IMG/VR virus record: IMGVR_UViG_2526164601_000033
DNA length: 18,343 nucleotides
Strand: one strand, 5' to 3'
From: a virus
Lineage: Duplodnaviria; Heunggongvirae; Uroviricota; Caudoviricetes
Shown piece after piece: positions 4,532 to 17,500 of the stretch. The notes below the pieces were generated by a model. It was given only the letters and a program-made list of their open reading frames with translations, was not told the origin of the DNA and searched no databases. Within the stretch, counting starts at the first letter, position 1; each line of letters opens with the position of its first letter. Both the position numbers and the translations under genes were made by a program.

Positions 4532-4589
4532 AAAAAGGGCGGCAGAGCAGTCACGGAGTAAAACTGATACCGCCAAACGTCACCAGAAA
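4532..4589 (-). ncRNA. dicF: DicF small regulatory RNA with its 3' terminator
   Basis: The reverse complement of 4532-4589 reads TTTCTGGTGACGTTTGGCGGTATCAGTTTTACTCCGTGACTGCTCTGCCGCCCTTTTT, which matches E. coli DicF as recalled, including the GGCGG/CCGCC terminator stem and U-run. It lies about 170 nt upstream of dicB on the same strand, as in Qin. Confidence 0.8.
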
Positions 4590-6902: not shown

Positions 6903-7130
6903 ATGTTGAAAATTGATGCTATAGCGTTTTTTGGCAGCAAAACAAAGCTTGCCAATGTCGCAGGAGTTAGGCTGGCAAGCGTTGCTGCATGGGGGGAACT
7001 GGTTCCTGAAGGTCGCGCGATGCGCCTGCAAGAGGCATCCGGCGGGGAACTTCAGTACGACCCCAAAGTTTATGACGAATATCGTAAGGCAAAGCGGGCG
7101 GGGCGGTTGAACAATGAAAATCACCACTGA
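6903..7130 (+). CDS. dicC: Cro-like HTH regulator (DicC/YdaS family)
   Basis: 75-aa ORF with AAGGGG about 8 nt upstream. Divergent partner of the DicA-like gene; block GRAMRLQEASGGELQYDPKVYDEYRK resembles DicC as recalled (less certain than the DicA recall). Confidence 0.75.
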   Translation: MLKIDAIAFFGSKTKLANVAGVRLASVAAWGELVPEGRAMRLQEASGGELQYDPKVYDEYRKAKRAGRLNNENHH

Positions 7131-7665
7131 ACAGGTTTGTGAGGCTCTGGATACCTGGGTATGCCGACCAGGAATGACACAGGAGCAGGCGACGATATTA
7201 ATCACGGAAGCATTCTGGGCTCTGAAAGAACGCCCGAACATCGATGTTCAACGCGTCACGTTTAATGATGGCGAGGTTGATCAACGGGCGCTGGGCGTTA
7301 ACCGGGTGAAGATATTCGAACGCTGGAAAGCTATCGACACCAGAGATAAGCGTGACAAATTCACGGCGCTGATTCCGGCAATTATGGAGGCTATCCGGAT
7401 CAGCGATTTCAGATTGTATTGTGAAATTACTGACGGAAAAAGCATTACGTACATGATCGCCGGGTTAAACAAAGAATATGGCGATGTGGTGGAGTCCGGG
7501 CTGCTTTTTGCGGATCCAGTTGTTGTGGAACGTGAGACTGACGAGCTTATAGAAAAAGCTATTGCTTTCAAGCACGCGTATCGTCAGCAATACCAATATT
7601 ACTTTGCAGATAAACAAATGTCTGCCAGGGGTTCGTATGAGTATCGATGCACTACGATGGGCTAA
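7114..7665 (+). CDS. YdaT-like (CII-position) protein
   Basis: 183-aa ORF overlapping the cro-like stop, at the position occupied by ydaT/cII-type genes in Rac-like prophages. The family assignment is by synteny and loose recollection only. Confidence 0.45.
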   Translation: MKITTEQVCEALDTWVCRPGMTQEQATILITEAFWALKERPNIDVQRVTFNDGEVDQRALGVNRVKIFERWKAIDTRDKRDKFTALIPAIMEAIRISDFRLYCEITDGKSITYMIAGLNKEYGDVVESGLLFADPVVVERETDELIEKAIAFKHAYRQQYQYYFADKQMSARGSYEYRCTTMG

Positions 7666-8677
7666 AAAGGTGAAAACCGGCAGTTCATCCAGTAAGTCAG
7701 TATTGACCTGGCTTGCTGATATGTGCGGTGCCGATTTGTGTGCATACCCGTCTGTATCTGCACTGGCAGAAGTAACGGAACTGAACAAAAAGACTGTGCA
7801 GGACAGCTTACGACACCTGATGGAGATTGGGTTAATTGTTGATACCGGTGAGAGAAAAGGCAGAACAAAGCAAATTGTGGTGTACCGACTTATCGGTGTA
7901 GAAGAAAGTGTTGCCGAGCCTGAATACACCCAAAAACGGGAGTCTTTAAAGGTGGGTAAAATTGGTGCTGTTAATAAAAACAGTACCGAAAATGGTTATG
8001 TTTCAGCACAAAACAGACCCAAAAACAGAACTCTTAGCTGCATGGAAAATAACCAAAGACACCCAAATTTTCCATCAAAGACACCCAAAAACGGATCACG
8101 GAACCCAAAGGAACCCAAAGATCTAAACCCCACACATAACGCACGCGAGAGTGCTCCGACCAGTGAGCAGGAAGTTTTGTCGTTACAGGCAGCCCCCCCT
8201 GTATTCCTGTATGGCCTGAGCGAACCCATCGGAAAATTCCCGATGAGCGATAGCTGGTATCCGTCACGGGATTTTCGACGACGGGCTGCGTTGTGGGGGA
8301 TGGCTTTGCCGGAGACAGAATTTACACCTGCTGAACTTGCCGCCTTCCGGGACTACTGGGCAGCGGAGGAGAAAGTGTTTACGCAGATTCAGTGGGAGCA
8401 GAAATTCGCCCGTCACGTAAATCACGTCAGGGCGCAGGTTAAACCAGTCAGCAAAGGGGTAAACCATGCAGCAGCACCAGGTGGCACCGCATCACGGGCA
8501 GTTCAGGAAATTCGGGCAGCACGTGAGCAGTGGGAACGTGAAAACGGATTTATCAGCGACGGAAACGGCCTGGAAGCTGTGGGAACTCATGGGGGTGGTT
8601 TATTCGAACCGCTGGATCCAGAAGAACGGGGCCGCACCTTCGAAGCTCTGGATTGCACAGATTGGCGCGATGACTGA
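7637..8677 (+). CDS. Replication initiation protein (N-terminal HTH, C-terminal DnaT-like domain)
   Basis: Start set to the ATG at 7637 (AGGGG 6 nt upstream; MSIDALRWAKKV...) rather than the track start 7562, which lies inside the upstream gene. The C-terminal block SDSWYPSRDFRRRAALWG...FTPAELAAFRDYW is DnaT-like as recalled. Confidence 0.7.
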   Translation: MSIDALRWAKKVKTGSSSSKSVLTWLADMCGADLCAYPSVSALAEVTELNKKTVQDSLRHLMEIGLIVDTGERKGRTKQIVVYRLIGVEESVAEPEYTQKRESLKVGKIGAVNKNSTENGYVSAQNRPKNRTLSCMENNQRHPNFPSKTPKNGSRNPKEPKDLNPTHNARESAPTSEQEVLSLQAAPPVFLYGLSEPIGKFPMSDSWYPSRDFRRRAALWGMALPETEFTPAELAAFRDYWAAEEKVFTQIQWEQKFARHVNHVRAQVKPVSKGVNHAAAPGGTASRAVQEIRAAREQWERENGFISDGNGLEAVGTHGGGLFEPLDPEERGRTFEALDCTDWRDD

Positions 8678-11549: not shown

Positions 11550-11852
11550 CCGGATGCCGCGCCAGCGGCATGTAGGGGCAGCTCACAAAACGGAAAAAAT
11601 TGTACGCTAAGCCTCGCCAGGTGAACTGAATTCATTCCGATATGGGAATTCCCATATCGGGCGAAAACGGTTTGCTGTAACGGCAGAGTTAAGTAGGATT
11701 GCTGCGGGTGCTTGAGGCTATCTGCCTCGGGCATGAACACCAACGGCAGATAGATAAAAGCCCCACCCGACTATAAATCGAAGTGAGGCCCCTATATGCT
11801 CGTCACATATAGATTGCCTCTTACGGACCGAAAGGTCAAGGAGAAGCAGGCT

Positions 11853-12008
11853 ATGAAGCAGCAAAAGGCGATGTTAATCGCCCTGATCGTCATCTGTTTA
11901 ACCGTCATAGTGACGGCACTGGTAACGAGGAAAGACCTCTGCGAGGTACGAATCCGAACCGGCCAGACGGAGGTCGCTGTCTTCACAGCTTACGAACCTG
12001 AGGAGTAA
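11853..12008 (+). CDS. hokD: Hok/Gef-family membrane toxin (type I toxin-antitoxin toxin)
   Basis: 51-aa product MKQQKAMLIALIVICLTVIVTALVTRKDLCEVRIRTGQTEVAVFTAYEPEE matches HokD/RelF as recalled. AAGGAG SD. A long structured leader lies upstream, with palindromes at 11637-11660 and 11792-11812. Confidence 0.85.
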   Translation: MKQQKAMLIALIVICLTVIVTALVTRKDLCEVRIRTGQTEVAVFTAYEPEE

Positions 12009-13891: not shown

Positions 13892-14257
13892 ATGACTGAA
13901 CGGATAGAATTTGTTTTGCCTTACCCGCCGACGGTGAATACCTACTGGCGACGTCATGGCAATACGTATTTCATCTCGGAAGCCGGAAAGCGTTATCGCC
14001 GTGATGTGGCGCTAATTGTTCGCCAGCAGCGGCTGAAATTAAACCTGTCCGGAAGGCTGGTGATAAAGATTATTGCAGAGCCACCGGATAAGCGCCGTCG
14101 TGACCTGGACAATATCCTGAAAGCACCACTGGATGTGCTGACGCATGCCGGACTTCTCATAGACGACGAGCAGTTTGATGAAATCAATATTGTGCGCGGT
14201 CAGCTCGTTCCTGGTGGGCGGCTGGGGATAAAAATCACAGAACTGGAGTGCGCATGA
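13892..14257 (+). CDS. rusA: RusA Holliday-junction resolvase
   Basis: 121-aa ORF. The blocks LPYPPTVNTYWRRHGN and DKRRRDLDNILKAPLDVLTHAGLLIDDEQ parallel E. coli RusA ([45 protein letters not shown]) as recalled. Confidence 0.9.
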   Translation: MTERIEFVLPYPPTVNTYWRRHGNTYFISEAGKRYRRDVALIVRQQRLKLNLSGRLVIKIIAEPPDKRRRDLDNILKAPLDVLTHAGLLIDDEQFDEINIVRGQLVPGGRLGIKITELECA

Positions 14258-14475
14258 ATAACCACTATTTACAGTTTGTGCGTGAGCAGCTCATTATCGC
14301 CACCGCTGATTTGAGTGGGGCAACAAAAGGTCAGCTTGAAGCCTGGCAGGAGAATGCCATGTTCGATACAGGGCGTTACAGGCGAAAAAAAATCCGGTAC
14401 CGCGATGAAGTGACTGGAAAAATGATAACGCGGGATAATCCACCAATCGTTATTATCCTGCGCCCGGCCCTTTAG
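14254..14475 (+). CDS. Hypothetical 73-aa protein; 3' end runs 10 nt into the first tRNA
   Basis: ATG at 14254 overlaps the rusA stop (ATGA), with GGAG 5 nt upstream. The stop codon TAG at 14473-14475 lies inside the tRNA. It occupies the position where a late antiterminator Q gene would be expected but is too short for one. Confidence 0.35.
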   Translation: MNNHYLQFVREQLIIATADLSGATKGQLEAWQENAMFDTGRYRRKKIRYRDEVTGKMITRDNPPIVIILRPAL

Positions 14476-14541
14476 CTCAGTGGTGAGAGCGAGCGACTCA
14501 TAATCGCCAGGTCGCTGGTTCAAATCCAGCAAGGGCCACCA
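14466..14541 (+). tRNA. tRNA-Ile2-like (anticodon CAU; Met cannot be excluded from sequence alone)
   Basis: Manual cloverleaf: acceptor GGCCCTT/AAGGGCC, D-arm GCTC-AGTGGTGA-GAGC, anticodon loop CTCATAA, T-arm GCTGG-TTCAAAT-CCAGC, encoded CCA. Resembles E. coli ileX-type tRNA as recalled. Confidence 0.8.
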
Positions 14542-14542
14542 A

Positions 14543-14618
14543 CCGCCACTAGCCATCAGGAAAGAGCGTCAACCCTTTAAGTTGAGTGTGCGAGGTTCGA
14601 GTCCCCGGTGGTGGTCCA
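14543..14618 (+). tRNA. tRNA-like sequence, degenerate (possible pseudo-tRNA); predicted anticodon loop CCTTTAA
   Basis: Acceptor CCGCCAC/GTGGTGG (one G-U pair) plus encoded CCA and a canonical GGTTCGAGTCC T-loop. The D-stem has only two Watson-Crick pairs (GCCA versus GAGC), the T-stem has an A-C mismatch, and position 33 is C rather than U. Confidence 0.4.
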
Positions 14619-14631
14619 TTATCGGTATTCT

Positions 14632-14705
14632 GCGTTGTTAGCTCAGCAGGACAGAGCAATTGCCTTCTAAGCAATCGGTCACTGGTTCGACTCCAGTACA
14701 ACGCG
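14632..14705 (+). tRNA. tRNA-Arg (anticodon UCU, reads rare AGA)
   Basis: Manual cloverleaf: acceptor GCGTTGT/ACAACGC, D-arm GCTC-AGCAGGAC-AGAGC, anticodon stem ATTGC/GCAAT with loop CTTCTAA, T-arm ACTGG-TTCGACT-CCAGT. CCA is not encoded. Confidence 0.8.
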
Positions 14706-14721
14706 CTACACTTATTTTCCC

Positions 14722-14746
14722 GGCTCGCTTTTGCGGGCCTTTTTTG
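14722..14746 (+). terminator. Rho-independent terminator after the tRNA cluster
   Basis: Stem GGCTCGC / GCGGGCC (one G-U pair) with TTTT loop, followed by TTTTTTG. Confidence 0.6.
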
Positions 14747-14788
14747 TATCTGCGCCACGCCCGGCGCATACCAACCACAGAGCCTTTC

Positions 14789-14798
14789 GGGGGGGGGG
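14789..14798. repeat. G10 homopolymer tract
   Basis: Ten consecutive G at 14789-14798, about 80 bp upstream of the TerB-like start codon. Confidence 0.9.
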
Positions 14799-14880
14799 AG
14801 CTTACGGAGTGGTCAGTGTGACTTTCTCTGTGGGCAGATCGCTCCCGGGCGTTGGCTCACCCACCCAAAGGAACGTCACG

Positions 14881-15313
14881 ATGTTTGGTATTTTTGGTAA
14901 AAAAAGCCCGCAGAGCGGCAACGGAAATTAAAAAGTTTGAAAAACGCGATCTGGCACAGGTGGTGATTAACGCCGCCTACCTGGTGGCCTGTGCAGATGG
15001 TGAATGTGAGGCTTCCTAGAAAGCGAAGATCGAACAGGTACTGCGTAATCAGCCTGCGCTGTACGCGTTTACGTCAGAAATTAATGCGATTAGCGCAACC
15101 ATTATCGGTCAGCTGGATACGAACTTTAAAACTGGTCGTCGTGCGGCGTTACGTGAGATCGAGGATGTGAAACACGATACGCGTGAAGCGGAAGATGTGC
15201 TGGATGTGGCGGTGGCCATTGCGGAGGCAGACGGCGAAATTGAGCCGGAAGAGCGCAAGGTGCTGGAAGAGATTGCCGGTGTTCTGGGTCTTCGTCTGGA
15301 GAATTACCTGTGA
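14881..15313 (+). pseudogene. TerB-like (tellurite-resistance TerB family) gene disrupted by a frameshift in an A7 tract and an in-frame TAG
   Basis: ATG at 14881 (AAGGAA SD) reads MFGIFGKKSPQSGNGN then stops at 14929-14931. The +1 frame from about 14906 continues ...FEKRDLAQVVINAAYLVACADGECEAS-TAG(15017-15019)-KAKIEQVL...AVAIAEADGEIEPEERKVLEEIAGVLGLRLENYL, ending at 15311-15313. The ADGE..EE motifs are TerB-like as recalled. The frame change maps to the A7 run at 14899-14905. Confidence 0.6.
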
Positions 15314-15477
15314 CGGTAAAACTGCGCCTGACTGTGGCTGCACTCCTGCTGTTTCTGGTGGTGATGGTGGATTTCACCAGCAGAATCATGTCGGTGCTGG
15401 CGGATGGGGTGCTGGTCTGCGGCATTATGGTATTGCTGTGGCCGGTGATAAAAAGAAACAGCCTGCATAATGCTTGA
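15310..15477 (+). CDS. Possible small membrane protein (55 aa, GTG start overlapping the TerB-like stop)
   Basis: The frame reads VTVKLRLTVAALLLFLVVMVDFTSRIMSVLADGVLVCGIMVLLWPVIKRNSLHNA with two hydrophobic segments. GTGA start/stop overlap and no clear SD, so weak. Confidence 0.3.
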   Translation: MTVKLRLTVAALLLFLVVMVDFTSRIMSVLADGVLVCGIMVLLWPVIKRNSLHNA

Positions 15478-15643
15478 TTTTTTGTTTGCTGTTTATTAAA
15501 AACACTTCTGCATGGTGAATCCCCCTGTGCGGAGGGGCGATCAGCAACCAGGTATATGGGATAATCGCGGATTCAGGTGCTGATACTGAATTCACCGGGA
15601 GGCACCCGGCACCATGCAAGAAAAAGAATGTGCATGCAAACAT

Positions 15644-15667
15644 GCCCCTCTCCGGAGGGGCTTTTTT
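15644..15667 (+). terminator. Rho-independent terminator in the intergenic region upstream of the esterase gene
   Basis: Stem GCCCCTC / GAGGGGC with TCCG loop, followed by TTTTTT. Confidence 0.55.
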
Positions 15668-15794
15668 ATGGGTAAAAAATGCCCGAATGGGTTCGGGCAA
15701 CAGCATGAGATACTGATATTGTTGTGTTGTTATCGTGTGGATTTTAACCAGGGTTTATCAGGCTGCGCAACTGCGTGGCCTTTTTTCATTTCTT

Positions 15795-15839
15795 GGGCTG
15801 TAGTCCCCGTGTGTCATTCAGGCTTCCGGACTACAGCCC
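15795..15839. repeat. 12-bp perfect inverted repeat (GGGCTGTAGTCC ... GGACTACAGCCC) with 21-nt spacer
   Basis: Arms at 15795-15806 and 15828-15839, about 45 bp upstream of the esterase ATG. Confidence 0.6.
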
Positions 15840-15882
15840 ACTCCATATCTGATTTAATACACTATCCCGGCCGGGAGGAATA

Positions 15883-16824
15883 ATGACATTTAAACATTAT
15901 GATGTTGTCAGGGCGGCGTCGCCGTCAGATCTTGCGGAAAAGCTGACACATAAACTGAAAGAGGGCTGGCAGCCGTTTGGTAGTCCGGTGGCCATAACCC
16001 CTTATACTCTGATGCAGGCGATTACAGCAGAAGGTGATGTGGTGGTCAGTGGTGCAACTGAGCCGGATTGGTACTACGTCATCGTACTGGCCGGGCAGTC
16101 CAATGCCATGGCTTACGGTGAAGGGCTTCCGCTGCCGGATTCATACGATGCTCCGGATCCGCGCATTAAACAGCTGGCGCGCCGCAGTACAGTGACGCCG
16201 GGTGGGGCTGCCTGCAGATATAACGATATTATTCCGGCCGACCACTGCCTGCATGATGTGCAGGATATGAGTACGCTGAATCATCCGAAGGCAGACCTGA
16301 GCAAAGGGCAGTACGGCTGTGTCGGCCAGGGGTTACATATTGCCAAAAAACTGCTCCCGTATATCCCGAATAACGCGGGGATCCTGCTGGTACCATGCTG
16401 TCGTGGTGGTTCGGCATTTACCCAGGGCGCGGAGGGGACATTCAGTGCGGACACGGGGGCCAGCCAGGATTCGGCGCGCTGGGGTGTGGGTAAACCGTTA
16501 TATCAGGACCTGATTGCGCGCACCAAAGCTGCATTACAGAAGAACCCGAAAAATGTGTTGCTGGCGGTGTGCTGGATGCAGGGAGAGTTTGACATGAGCG
16601 CCGCCACCCACGCACAGCAACCTGCGCTGTTTACAGCCATGCTGACACAGTTTCGTGCTGACCTCTCCGTGTTTAACGCGCAGTGCCATGGTGGCAGTGC
16701 TGCAGATGTGCCGTGGATTTGTGGTGACACGACGTATTACTGGAAAAATACCTACGGCACCCAGTACACCGGGAAAGCAATCGCTGGCGAAGGTGACGTC
16801 AATTCCTCTGGTCAGTCCGGTTGA
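15883..16824 (+). CDS. Sialate O-acetylesterase-like protein (NanS-p-like: N-terminal DUF1737-like segment plus SGNH/SASA esterase domain), apparently truncated
   Basis: 313-aa ORF with GGGAGG SD. Motif LAGQSNAMAYGE (the GQSN block of SGNH/SASA esterases) and WMQGEFD (WxQGESD-like). Synteny with prophage nanS-p paralogues downstream of the tRNA cluster in lambdoid/Stx phages; those are usually much longer. Confidence 0.75.
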   Translation: MTFKHYDVVRAASPSDLAEKLTHKLKEGWQPFGSPVAITPYTLMQAITAEGDVVVSGATEPDWYYVIVLAGQSNAMAYGEGLPLPDSYDAPDPRIKQLARRSTVTPGGAACRYNDIIPADHCLHDVQDMSTLNHPKADLSKGQYGCVGQGLHIAKKLLPYIPNNAGILLVPCCRGGSAFTQGAEGTFSADTGASQDSARWGVGKPLYQDLIARTKAALQKNPKNVLLAVCWMQGEFDMSAATHAQQPALFTAMLTQFRADLSVFNAQCHGGSAADVPWICGDTTYYWKNTYGTQYTGKAIAGEGDVNSSGQSG

Positions 16825-17263
16825 GTTTTCGACATCATCGTGGCGGCGGGCTGTTCTGTCTCTTGAAGAACATCATAAAGCCTGGTTGTTGTGGTGTTAC
16901 AGCGGGAGTATTTGTTGGGAATATCAGATCGCGATAACACAGTGGGCGTGGAATGAATTTAATACTCAATCCGGTACCAGAAAAATTGCTGGGAAAACGC
17001 AGGAACGCCTGAAAAAATTAATCTGGCTGGCGGCGCAGGCAGTAAAAGCAGAACTTTTTGGTGGGGAAGGTTATGAATATCAGGAGCTGGCATTACTGGC
17101 GGGAGTGACAACTAAAAACTGGTCCAAAACATTTACTCGTCACTGGGTTGCAATGAAACACATTTTTCACCGACTGGATAGTGAGGCTTTATTATTTGTA
17201 ATGAGAACACGTTCAAAACAAAAGGCGGCATTTTCAAAGCAATGTGTTGCAAAAGTAGATTGA
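16825..17263 (+). other. Open reading frame without a credible start, in a different phase downstream of the esterase stop (possible frameshifted C-terminal remnant)
   Basis: The track ORF 16655-17263 is stop-free for 202 codons but has no ATG with an SD after 16824. The part upstream of 16824 is the alternate frame of the esterase gene. Confidence 0.3.
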
Positions 17264-17326
17264 AAGGCATATATTTCATGCAAATCTGATATTTTGCCGA
17301 TTTTGTACGTGATGGCAAAAGCAAAC

Positions 17327-17354
17327 AAAACCCGCCCACAAGCGGGTTTTGTTG
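17327..17354 (+). terminator. Rho-independent terminator (hairpin plus T-run)
   Basis: Stem AAAACCCGC / GCGGGTTTT with CCACAA loop, followed by GTTGT. An A-run precedes it, so it could act in both directions. Confidence 0.6.
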
Positions 17355-17500
17355 TGCCACTTATCTCGGATAGACATGGTGAATGCGCTGGTGGAGGAGA
17401 TAAGGGTGATTTTTGTATGCTTGCAACATTGATTTCGTAACACACCATTTACGGGGCGTACAAAAACAGGGAGAGTGAGGGCGTTTATTTTGTGCCCTTC

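Follow-up and report, generated by a model that had tools for sequence, protein, structure and literature searches.

What is encoded in the gap that precedes the sialate O-acetylesterase gene of a lambdoid prophage? We addressed this question in an 18,343-nucleotide (nt) stretch of Caudoviricetes DNA (IMG/VR virus record IMGVR_UViG_2526164601_000033; hereafter, the window), in which the interval from 15478 to 15882 is flanked by a 55-amino-acid (aa) DUF3927 gene (15310-15477) and by the ATG of a nanS-p-type esterase gene at 15883. RefSeq annotates nothing in the gap between DUF3927 and nanS-p, and a preliminary description, made from the sequence alone, called it a structured non-coding interval whose hairpins might control the esterase. 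An Rfam search of the whole window at gathering thresholds showed that about 255 of the 405 bases of the interval belong to two known small RNA (sRNA) genes, STnc100 and AgvB. Thus, the interval is structured as described, but it is not a non-coding spacer with esterase-regulating hairpins. We conclude, with a probability of roughly 85%, that it is a convergent sRNA module (STnc100 plus AgvB) of the lambdoid prophages of pathogenic Escherichia coli, located between the moron slot and nanS-p. The two genes and their parts are as follows.

15481-15673, + strand: STnc100-family sRNA gene (Rfam RF02076, full-length)
15521-15537, + strand: internal stem-loop of STnc100, CCCCC/GGGG (paired in the Rfam consensus alignment)
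15644-15667, + strand: terminator T1 of STnc100 (terminator scan; terminal helix of the Rfam model)
15674-15735, - strand: AgvB anti-sRNA gene, predicted sponge of the GcvB R1 seed (Rfam RF02702, full-length)
15674-15699, - strand: intrinsic terminator of AgvB, stem 15699-15680 and U-run to 15674 (terminator scan; terminal helix of the Rfam model)

The STnc100 match covers model positions 1 to 206 of 206 and scores 145.8 bits against a gathering threshold of 47 (E = 7.5e-33). Its minimum free energy fold (-76.4 kcal/mol; z = -4.15) was not equaled in stability by any of 200 shuffles. Two elements of the preliminary description are parts of this gene. The GC hairpin that had been placed at about 15524-15540 is present as CCCCC-TGTGCGG-AGGGG at 15521-15537; it is the first conserved stem-loop inside STnc100, and the block that contains it (15491-15540) is 91 to 94% conserved in more than 100 Shiga toxin (Stx) phage records. 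The intrinsic terminator claimed at 15644-15667 was recovered by the terminator scan, with a 7-bp G+C stem, a 4-nt loop, and a T6 run (stem 15644-15661, GCCCCTC-TCCG-GAGGGGC; T-run to 15667). The gene is 96.9% identical to the copy in the Sakai prophage Sp17, and it resembles STnc100, EcOnc27, and EcOnc06 in its full-length model match, conserved GCAUGGUGAAUCCCCCUGUGCGGAGGGGCGA core, and terminal intrinsic terminator, as well as in its position directly after the moron and ahead of the anti-sRNA. It differs from the Rfam consensus in its central part (about 15543-15565), which is shorter and diverged. Elsewhere, a single IMG/VR prophage contig carries five STnc100 copies (L128:4984-5196 and 6956-7937), four of them arrayed head-to-tail.

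Other members of this family have been studied experimentally. In strain EDL933, RNA-seq reads were recorded for 11 of 11 STnc100 copies, and Northern blotting confirmed one of them (PMC5331693). STnc100 is also related to PasD1 and PasD2, sRNAs found by RIL-seq in enteropathogenic E. coli and associated with a sialate esterase gene; we take this relation from the statement in the Pas preprint (bioRxiv 10.64898/2026.05.13.724894), not from a sequence comparison of our own. Tree et al. (2014) reported the + strand partners EcOnc27 (Sp5, about 235/247 nt) and EcOnc06 (Sp17, about 177 nt) and listed a homologue of EcOnc06 as "5' ECs1961" (PMC4104026). Both sites coincide with Rfam placements of STnc100, and ECs_1961 is the Sp10 esterase in the Sakai annotation. 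We infer that EcOnc06 is the Sp17 copy of STnc100, assuming that the genome-version shift of about +137 nt seen at AgvB1 also applies at Sp17. According to the literature, EcOnc27, EcOnc06, and PasD1/2 are Hfq-bound trans-acting sRNAs.

The AgvB match is likewise complete (model positions 1 to 62 of 62; 95.6 bits against a gathering threshold of 56; E = 8.9e-18). Its 5' variable region carries the GcvB R1 target consensus CACAACA (CGAUAACAACACAACAAUAUC), and its conserved 3' region of about 42 nt ends in a Rho-independent terminator whose stem is a perfect 8-bp inverted repeat followed by U6. The 5' 24 nt are predicted to form a duplex with MG1655 GcvB at -19.9 kcal/mol, compared to -13.7 +/- 2.8 kcal/mol for shuffled sequences (z = -2.2; 1.8% of shuffles equally good). 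STnc100 and AgvB converge, with their terminators back to back (ending at 15667 and 15674, respectively). The - strand terminator (15699-15680) had been overlooked in the preliminary description, as had a second + strand terminator at 15760-15781. The window copy of AgvB is identical to AgvB1 of Sakai Sp10 at 61 of 62 nt. The one substitution, at 15702 (C on the + strand, versus T in Sakai and E2863), falls between the two 3' hairpins, in the linker that precedes the terminator hairpin, where the RNA reads ...CAUGCUGUUGCCC in the window and ...CAUGCUAUUGCCC in Sakai and E2863. Otherwise, the seed mimic, terminator, and promoter region are like those of AgvB1 and AgvB2 (EcOnc01a/b, Sakai Sp10/Sp17), which occupy the same site between TerB/DUF3927 and the esterase and also face an STnc100 copy. 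The setting agrees with the published definition of AgvB (PMC4104026): a lambdoid prophage, a location between the moron and a conserved downstream open reading frame (ORF), and a convergent + strand sRNA.

The convergent sRNA pair that lies between the moron and nanS-p is known from the work of Tree et al. (2014), who characterized AgvB1 (EcOnc01a) of Sp10 as a 60-nt, Hfq-dependent sRNA and the most abundant of this group (PMC4104026). In that study, the 5' CACAACA of Sakai AgvB paired with the GcvB R1 seed and relieved the repression of DppA, and AgvB contributed to growth and fitness in bovine terminal rectal mucus (PMC4104026). The sponge function of the window copy would carry over from this literature: its CACAACA would mimic GcvB targets and sequester the R1 seed, leaving transporters such as DppA derepressed. 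AgvB rewires the GcvB amino acid and peptide transport regulon of the host and aids colonization of the bovine niche (PMC4104026). An unannotated RefSeq prophage gap of about 400 bp thus hides two sRNA genes, and recognizing the module should keep later work from presenting it once more as a new "structured spacer."

These matches bear directly on two other readings of the interval. To the first, an ordinary intergenic spacer whose hairpins are chance or mere terminators, we give almost no weight. Consistent with it, RefSeq annotates no feature here; however, two Rfam families, each with an experimental literature, refute it for the sRNA part, and the hairpin just upstream of the esterase gene (H, described below) is conserved with covariation. 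The second, that a small protein is encoded by an 89-aa + strand ORF (15614-15883) or by a - strand ORF (ECs_1960 in Sakai), is about as negligible. Such ORFs do exist, the stop codon of the + strand ORF overlaps the esterase ATG (TAATG) in a way that suggests translational coupling, and the Sakai annotation has a - strand "hypothetical protein" across the region. However, neither the + strand ORF nor the - strand ORF at 15425-15706 has a Pfam match, the + frame is broken in close relatives by changes in T-run length and by a 4-nt insertion in Sakai, the TAATG overlap is missing in other classes of the nanS-p leader, and current RefSeq annotation drops such ORFs or labels them pseudogenes. The coupled upstream ORF was therefore rejected, its frame not being conserved and a Pfam match being absent. 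The earlier statement that the interval lacks a convincing gene holds for proteins but not for RNA.

The module is widespread. Copies of the interval in complete E. coli genomes are 98.3 to 99.8% identical to the window; 2,856 of 5,426 such genomes carry parts of the module, 626 carry at least 80% of it, and it is also present in 152 phage records. Sakai Sp17 has the same module as the window. Relative to Sakai Sp10, the interval shows three single-base differences (in AgvB, in the loop of H, and in the T-run just before the STnc100 match), and Sp10 additionally has a 4-nt duplication in an arm of H.

The preliminary description had placed the interval between the tRNAs and nanS-p, where Stx phages carry stxAB. 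The first part is correct: the tRNAs lie at 14466-14706, and the esterase gene has DUF1737 and SASA domains. The second can be made more exact, since Stx phages share the module and the interval corresponds to a position just downstream of the stxAB slot. In the Stx1a phage Stx1_499, an STnc100 copy begins 79 nt after stx1B, and the module, which reaches the start of nanS-p, continues with an AgvB-family anti-sRNA with a different seed, terminator T2, and an H of class A that is identical to that of the window. An STnc100 copy also follows stx2B in a Stx2a phage, and a published copy lies 75 nt after stx2B (PMC12370729). Because the module follows stx1B and stx2B in these phages, the stxAB slot is upstream of a shared module. 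The window therefore resembles the AsxR/EcOnc27 module (3' of stx2B, Sp5) and its stx1B equivalent, in which an STnc100-type + strand sRNA faces a short - strand anti-sRNA that combines a conserved 3' 42 nt with a variable 5' seed. It differs in that its seed is of the AgvB type (the AsxR model scores 39.2 bits against a gathering threshold of 63) and in that its upstream cargo is TerB/DUF3927 rather than stx. The window contains no stx sequence.

The remainder of the interval, between AgvB and the esterase gene, contains the following features.

15741-15770, - strand: putative AgvB sigma-70 promoter, -35 at 15770-15765 and -10 at 15746-15741 (sequence inspection)
15760-15787, + strand: second intrinsic terminator, T2, stem 15760-15781 and T-run to 15787 (terminator scan)
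15794-15840, + strand: hairpin H, the inverted repeat of the preliminary description, 13-bp perfect stem and 21-nt loop (inverted-repeat search; RNAalifold)
15865-15876, + strand: small hairpin, UCCC/GGGA, that extends into the 5' part of the Shine-Dalgarno (SD) sequence of nanS-p, GGAGGA, 15874-15879 (RNAalifold)

The candidate promoter of AgvB has a -35 box of TTGCGC, an 18-nt spacer, a -10 box of TAAAAT, and a start at 15735. We treat it as putative because it was not among the sites listed by the sigma-70 scan. To place it in a wider context, we used a set of 196 nanS-p upstream regions taken from IMG/VR prophage contigs, and we scored the conservation of T2 and H on a 31-sequence MAFFT alignment of these leaders. 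TTGCGC and a TTAAAAT or TATTAT box occur at equal spacing in every leader class that has a - strand sRNA, whichever sRNA that is, and the promoter boxes (CTGCGCAA/TTGCGCAA) are invariant in 31 of 31 aligned sequences. At loci of classes C, F, G, and H (L082:2396-2497 [+ in the locus], L164, L128, L137, L156, and L100), the partner of STnc100 is not of the AgvB/AsxR type; the - strand there carries a candidate sRNA of about 85 to 95 nt (e.g., GCCAGCUGAAAUAUUACUUCACGUUUUGUUGUUUAUUCCUUGCC... plus a terminator), with TTGCGC as the -35 and TATTAT as the -10, that belongs to no Rfam family.

T2 consists of AGGCTGCGC-AACT-GCGTGGCCT plus T6 and has nine pairs, six of which are G-C. On the opposite strand, its loop and left arm are the -35 box of AgvB, an overlap for which, as far as we found, the literature holds no description. 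Among the aligned relatives, T2 has 47 G.U cells versus 5 A.C cells, one U.G pair is invariant, and G.U alternates with G-C; therefore, T2 pairs only as + strand RNA. The pair counts understate its conservation in classes F and G, because these leaders pair in a register 2 nt away from that of class A (as judged by eye in the alignment). The scan found a G+C-rich stem, a short loop, and an adjacent U-run in T1, T2, and the AgvB terminator alike, and it counted six terminator-like sites in 14200-16200, compared to 2.1 +/- 1.5 in shuffled sequence. On the + strand, antisense to AgvB, a subthreshold OmrA-B match (20.9 bits against 40; E = 0.17) spans 15703-15787 and has T2 at its end. The terminator probably accounts for this match, but a + strand RNA may end there.

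For the inverted repeat, which had been described as 12 bp with a 21-nt spacer, we confirmed the spacer and found that the perfect arms extend to 13 bp (15794-15806, TGGGCTGTAGTCC; 15828-15840, GGACTACAGCCCA), ending 42 nt ahead of the esterase ATG. With a spacing limit of 60 nt, H is longer than any other perfect inverted repeat in the window. It is present at the same place in leader classes A (that of the window), B, C, F, G, and H, with loops of about 11 to 28 nt whose sequences are unrelated between classes. When 1.34 Mb of prophage loci were searched for GGGCYG...CRGCCC, H turned up solely at the position upstream of nanS-p (145 loci); elsewhere, only three unrelated palindromes were found, and the possibility that H is a dispersed repeat (repetitive extragenic palindrome or miniature inverted-repeat transposable element) was rejected. 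The sequences that follow H, CTCCATATCTG on the + strand and AAGAAATG on the - strand, contain no U-run, and H is absent from the terminator scan; lacking a U-tract, it is not a terminator. For T2/H (15736-15882), the subthreshold OmrA-B match was the only hit to a curated Rfam family; in the permissive search of 15400-16000, nothing credible was found and no match covered 15794-15840. In Sakai Sp10 (L202:1790-1840), and also at some IMG/VR loci (L018 and L020), the right arm of H has 4 nt (CAGC) duplicated, which makes a bulge.

Several observations indicate, at the level of sequence, that H is a conserved + strand RNA structure. It was recovered independently in the RNAalifold consensus of the 31 sequences. 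When T2 and H were scored jointly, 86.5% of cells paired, compared to 32 to 44% when the partners were slid, and 0 of 500 column shuffles reached the observed pairing or covariation score. The helices of H are paired in 93.5% and 80.9% of cells, and 7 of 14 pairs have changed on both sides (e.g., U-A to C-G, A-U to G-C, G-C to U-A, and G-C to A-U). H contains 53 G.U cells, at 12 of 14 positions, versus 6 A.C cells, at 4 positions. This asymmetry indicates that the + strand RNA is under selection, and it speaks against a DNA operator as well as a - strand RNA. Of the two possibilities raised in the preliminary description, a regulatory RNA structure and a protein-binding site, the RNA structure is thus supported and the protein-binding site disfavored. 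The evidence for the small UCCC/GGGA hairpin near the SD sequence is weak: its pairs hold in 29 to 30 of 31 sequences, without covariation.

The protein-binding alternative deserves a closer look. If the repeat were a DNA operator, a dimeric protein would sit on the two 13-bp arms and control either the esterase or the divergent AgvB promoter. The repeat is indeed a perfect palindrome in the window, relative to the AgvB start it spans -59 to -105, in the class I activator zone upstream of the promoter, and co-evolving half-sites could equally produce symmetric changes in the two arms. What speaks against an operator is that the arm changes favor + strand RNA wobble pairs and thereby break DNA symmetry, and that the class-to-class differences in spacer length and sequence would alter the phasing of the half-sites. 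In addition, 13-bp arms with a 21-nt gap are atypical of operators, and the scan predicted no sigma-70 promoter for the esterase nearby. On balance, we regard an operator as quite unlikely.

Control of the esterase by the repeat, as had been suggested, was assessed for one mechanism, a translational switch in which the loop (15812-15829) represses the esterase by pairing with the nanS-p SD sequence and start codon (15871-15888) in a pseudoknot or an alternative fold. The 18-nt complementarity (7 + 7 bp) between the loop and the initiation region fits such a switch, as does the combination of UGCCAU with AUGGCA in class C and of UGUCAU with AUGACA in the window, which looks like covariation. 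Against this, RNAduplex energies had z-scores of only -1.4 to +1.4 in 31 of 31 leaders (each compared to 300 shuffled loops), classes B, F, G, and H have no complement to the AUG, several class C variants combine UGUCAU with AUGGCA, and the SD sequence lies outside H in both the minimum free energy and the centroid folds. Since the pairing was no better than that of shuffled loops in any class, we rejected it, as unsupported, as the function of H, and a switch of this kind now seems improbable. A second candidate, pairing of the GU-rich, GcvB-seed-like loops of H with the seed of the neighboring anti-sRNA, was dropped after inspection by eye showed no consistent complementarity in classes A and C.

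What, then, might H do? At the scan threshold no sigma-70 promoter for nanS-p was found beside H, and inspection by hand gave weak candidates only; therefore, in the canonical gene arrangement, H is most likely part of a long late transcript. Tentatively, and at well short of even odds, we favor the reading of H as an RNA element that acts in the stability or processing of that transcript. H could serve as a 5' protective stem after cleavage, or a nuclease could cut at H and so detach the moron/sRNA part from the nanS-p and lysis mRNA. Alternatively, its RNA stem could bind a protein, or the hairpin could insulate the initiation region structurally, so that this region does not pair with RNA upstream of it. 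Known counterparts of the favored element are the 5' stem-loops that stabilize mRNAs, such as the ompA leader, and the RNase III processing hairpins of phage polycistronic transcripts, such as T7 R1.1. H is like these in being a stable leader stem-loop without a U-tract, with a conserved stem and a freely varying loop. The analogy is functional only, and we claim no membership: sequence similarity is lacking and, for a classical RNase III site, a stem of 13 bp is short. As far as we found, H is undescribed in the literature.

Taken together, these features suggest how the module would work. STnc100 would be made as a + strand RNA of roughly 170 to 200 nt (15481-15673) that ends at T1. The 62-nt AgvB would be transcribed from its own - strand sigma-70 promoter to its own terminator, back to back with T1. 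In tandem, T1 and T2 would stop non-antiterminated transcription coming from the moron or STnc100 before nanS-p and the lysis genes, whereas Q-modified polymerase from PR' would read through both and pass head-on across the AgvB gene and promoter. Most of this picture is already known; as far as we found, H and the T2/-35 overlap are the conserved items that are left. A more far-reaching proposal is that H is a selected cis-acting element of the late leader, acting in processing, stability, or standby, and that the T2/-35 overlap is a deliberate two-strand device. In a lysogen, the device would keep the late genes insulated while AgvB fires; after induction, antiterminated polymerases would collide with AgvB transcription and shut it off. 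We consider this proposal possible but rather doubtful. If it is true, the device couples the output of the anti-sRNA to the lysis-lysogeny state. If functional, H and the overlap would bear on how Stx-type prophages silence nanS-p and the lysis genes alongside sRNA expression, an incremental advance and no surprise.

The identities, structures, strandedness, and conservation reported above come from this analysis, and the functions of AgvB and of the STnc100 relatives come from the literature; we infer the insulation by T1 and T2 and the role of H. A number of points weigh against the picture as a whole. The case for sRNA genes at this particular locus is made from sequence. Upstream of 15481, the scan found no convincing + strand sigma-70 promoter, and inspection by hand yielded weak candidates only; moreover, STnc100 homology with other contexts begins only at about 15491. 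Two types of nanS-p leader, the AT-rich Stx2a/933W-like type, which lacks the T2-proximal H, and the MSIK type, have no H, so H is not essential for nanS-p. Several rare variants have mismatches in the H stem, the A.C cases are among rare variants, and the covariation is drawn from about six lineages of related sequences. Finally, Q and nanS-p are both split in the window by a block exchange (see below), and PR' no longer points into the interval; the read-through model therefore applies to the canonical arrangement only.

The genes on either side of the interval are as follows.

14880-15477, + strand: moron in the stx slot, a TerB-family gene plus a DUF3927 small membrane protein gene, 15310-15477 (Pfam PF05099 and PF13064)
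15883-16768, + strand: 5' part of the nanS-p-type sialate O-acetylesterase gene, interrupted at 16768/16769 (Pfam DUF1737 and SASA; block mapping)

The TerB-family gene (14880-15313) is a pseudogene with an in-frame TAG at 15017-15019, and its PF05099 match covers only 15020-15313. An "internal stop" in TerB is likewise annotated in PEC240; the annotations of E2863, Sakai, and 7.1_Anguil give an intact gene. The TerB and DUF3927 pair is annotated in E2863, PEC240, and Sakai.

Compared to PEC240 and the O157 strain 7.1_Anguil, in which the canonical order is RusA-Q-PR'-tRNAs-TerB-DUF3927-sRNAs-nanS-p, the window has two adjacent blocks exchanged. A 673-bp block at 16769-17441, inside nanS-p, canonically lies before the tRNAs and comprises the 3' two-thirds of Q together with the intergenic region (PR'/tR') between Q and the tRNAs. 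Q is consequently split (Pfam profile positions 2-62 at 14248-14475 and 59-217 at 16655-17263), as is the esterase gene. The breakpoints (14448, 16768/16769, and 17441/17442) are exact, without loss or duplication, and no complete E. coli genome in our RefSeq collection contains the junctions in one piece. The displacement could be a real translocation, a misassembly, or a manipulated or mishandled sequence. The interval 15478-15882 lies wholly within one block and is internally canonical.

Some further features of the window concern other loci. The middle tRNA (14543-14618), at the argN position, is a diverged variant to which ARAGORN assigns the anticodon UUU (Lys) and which scores below the Rfam tRNA threshold; it differs at many positions from argN of O157/Stx2a phages (anticodon loop CUUCGAA). 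At 17324-17353, within the displaced Q-tRNA intergenic block, lies a perfect inverted repeat of 12 bp (AACAAAACCCGC-N6-GCGGGTTTTGTT) that resembles a bidirectional intrinsic terminator, probably tR' of the short PR' transcript (StxS/6S-like). Rfam also identified two other prophage RNAs, a sok antitoxin RNA (11706-11855; 103.9 bits) beside a hok-type locus and DicF (4537-4588; 76.7 bits).

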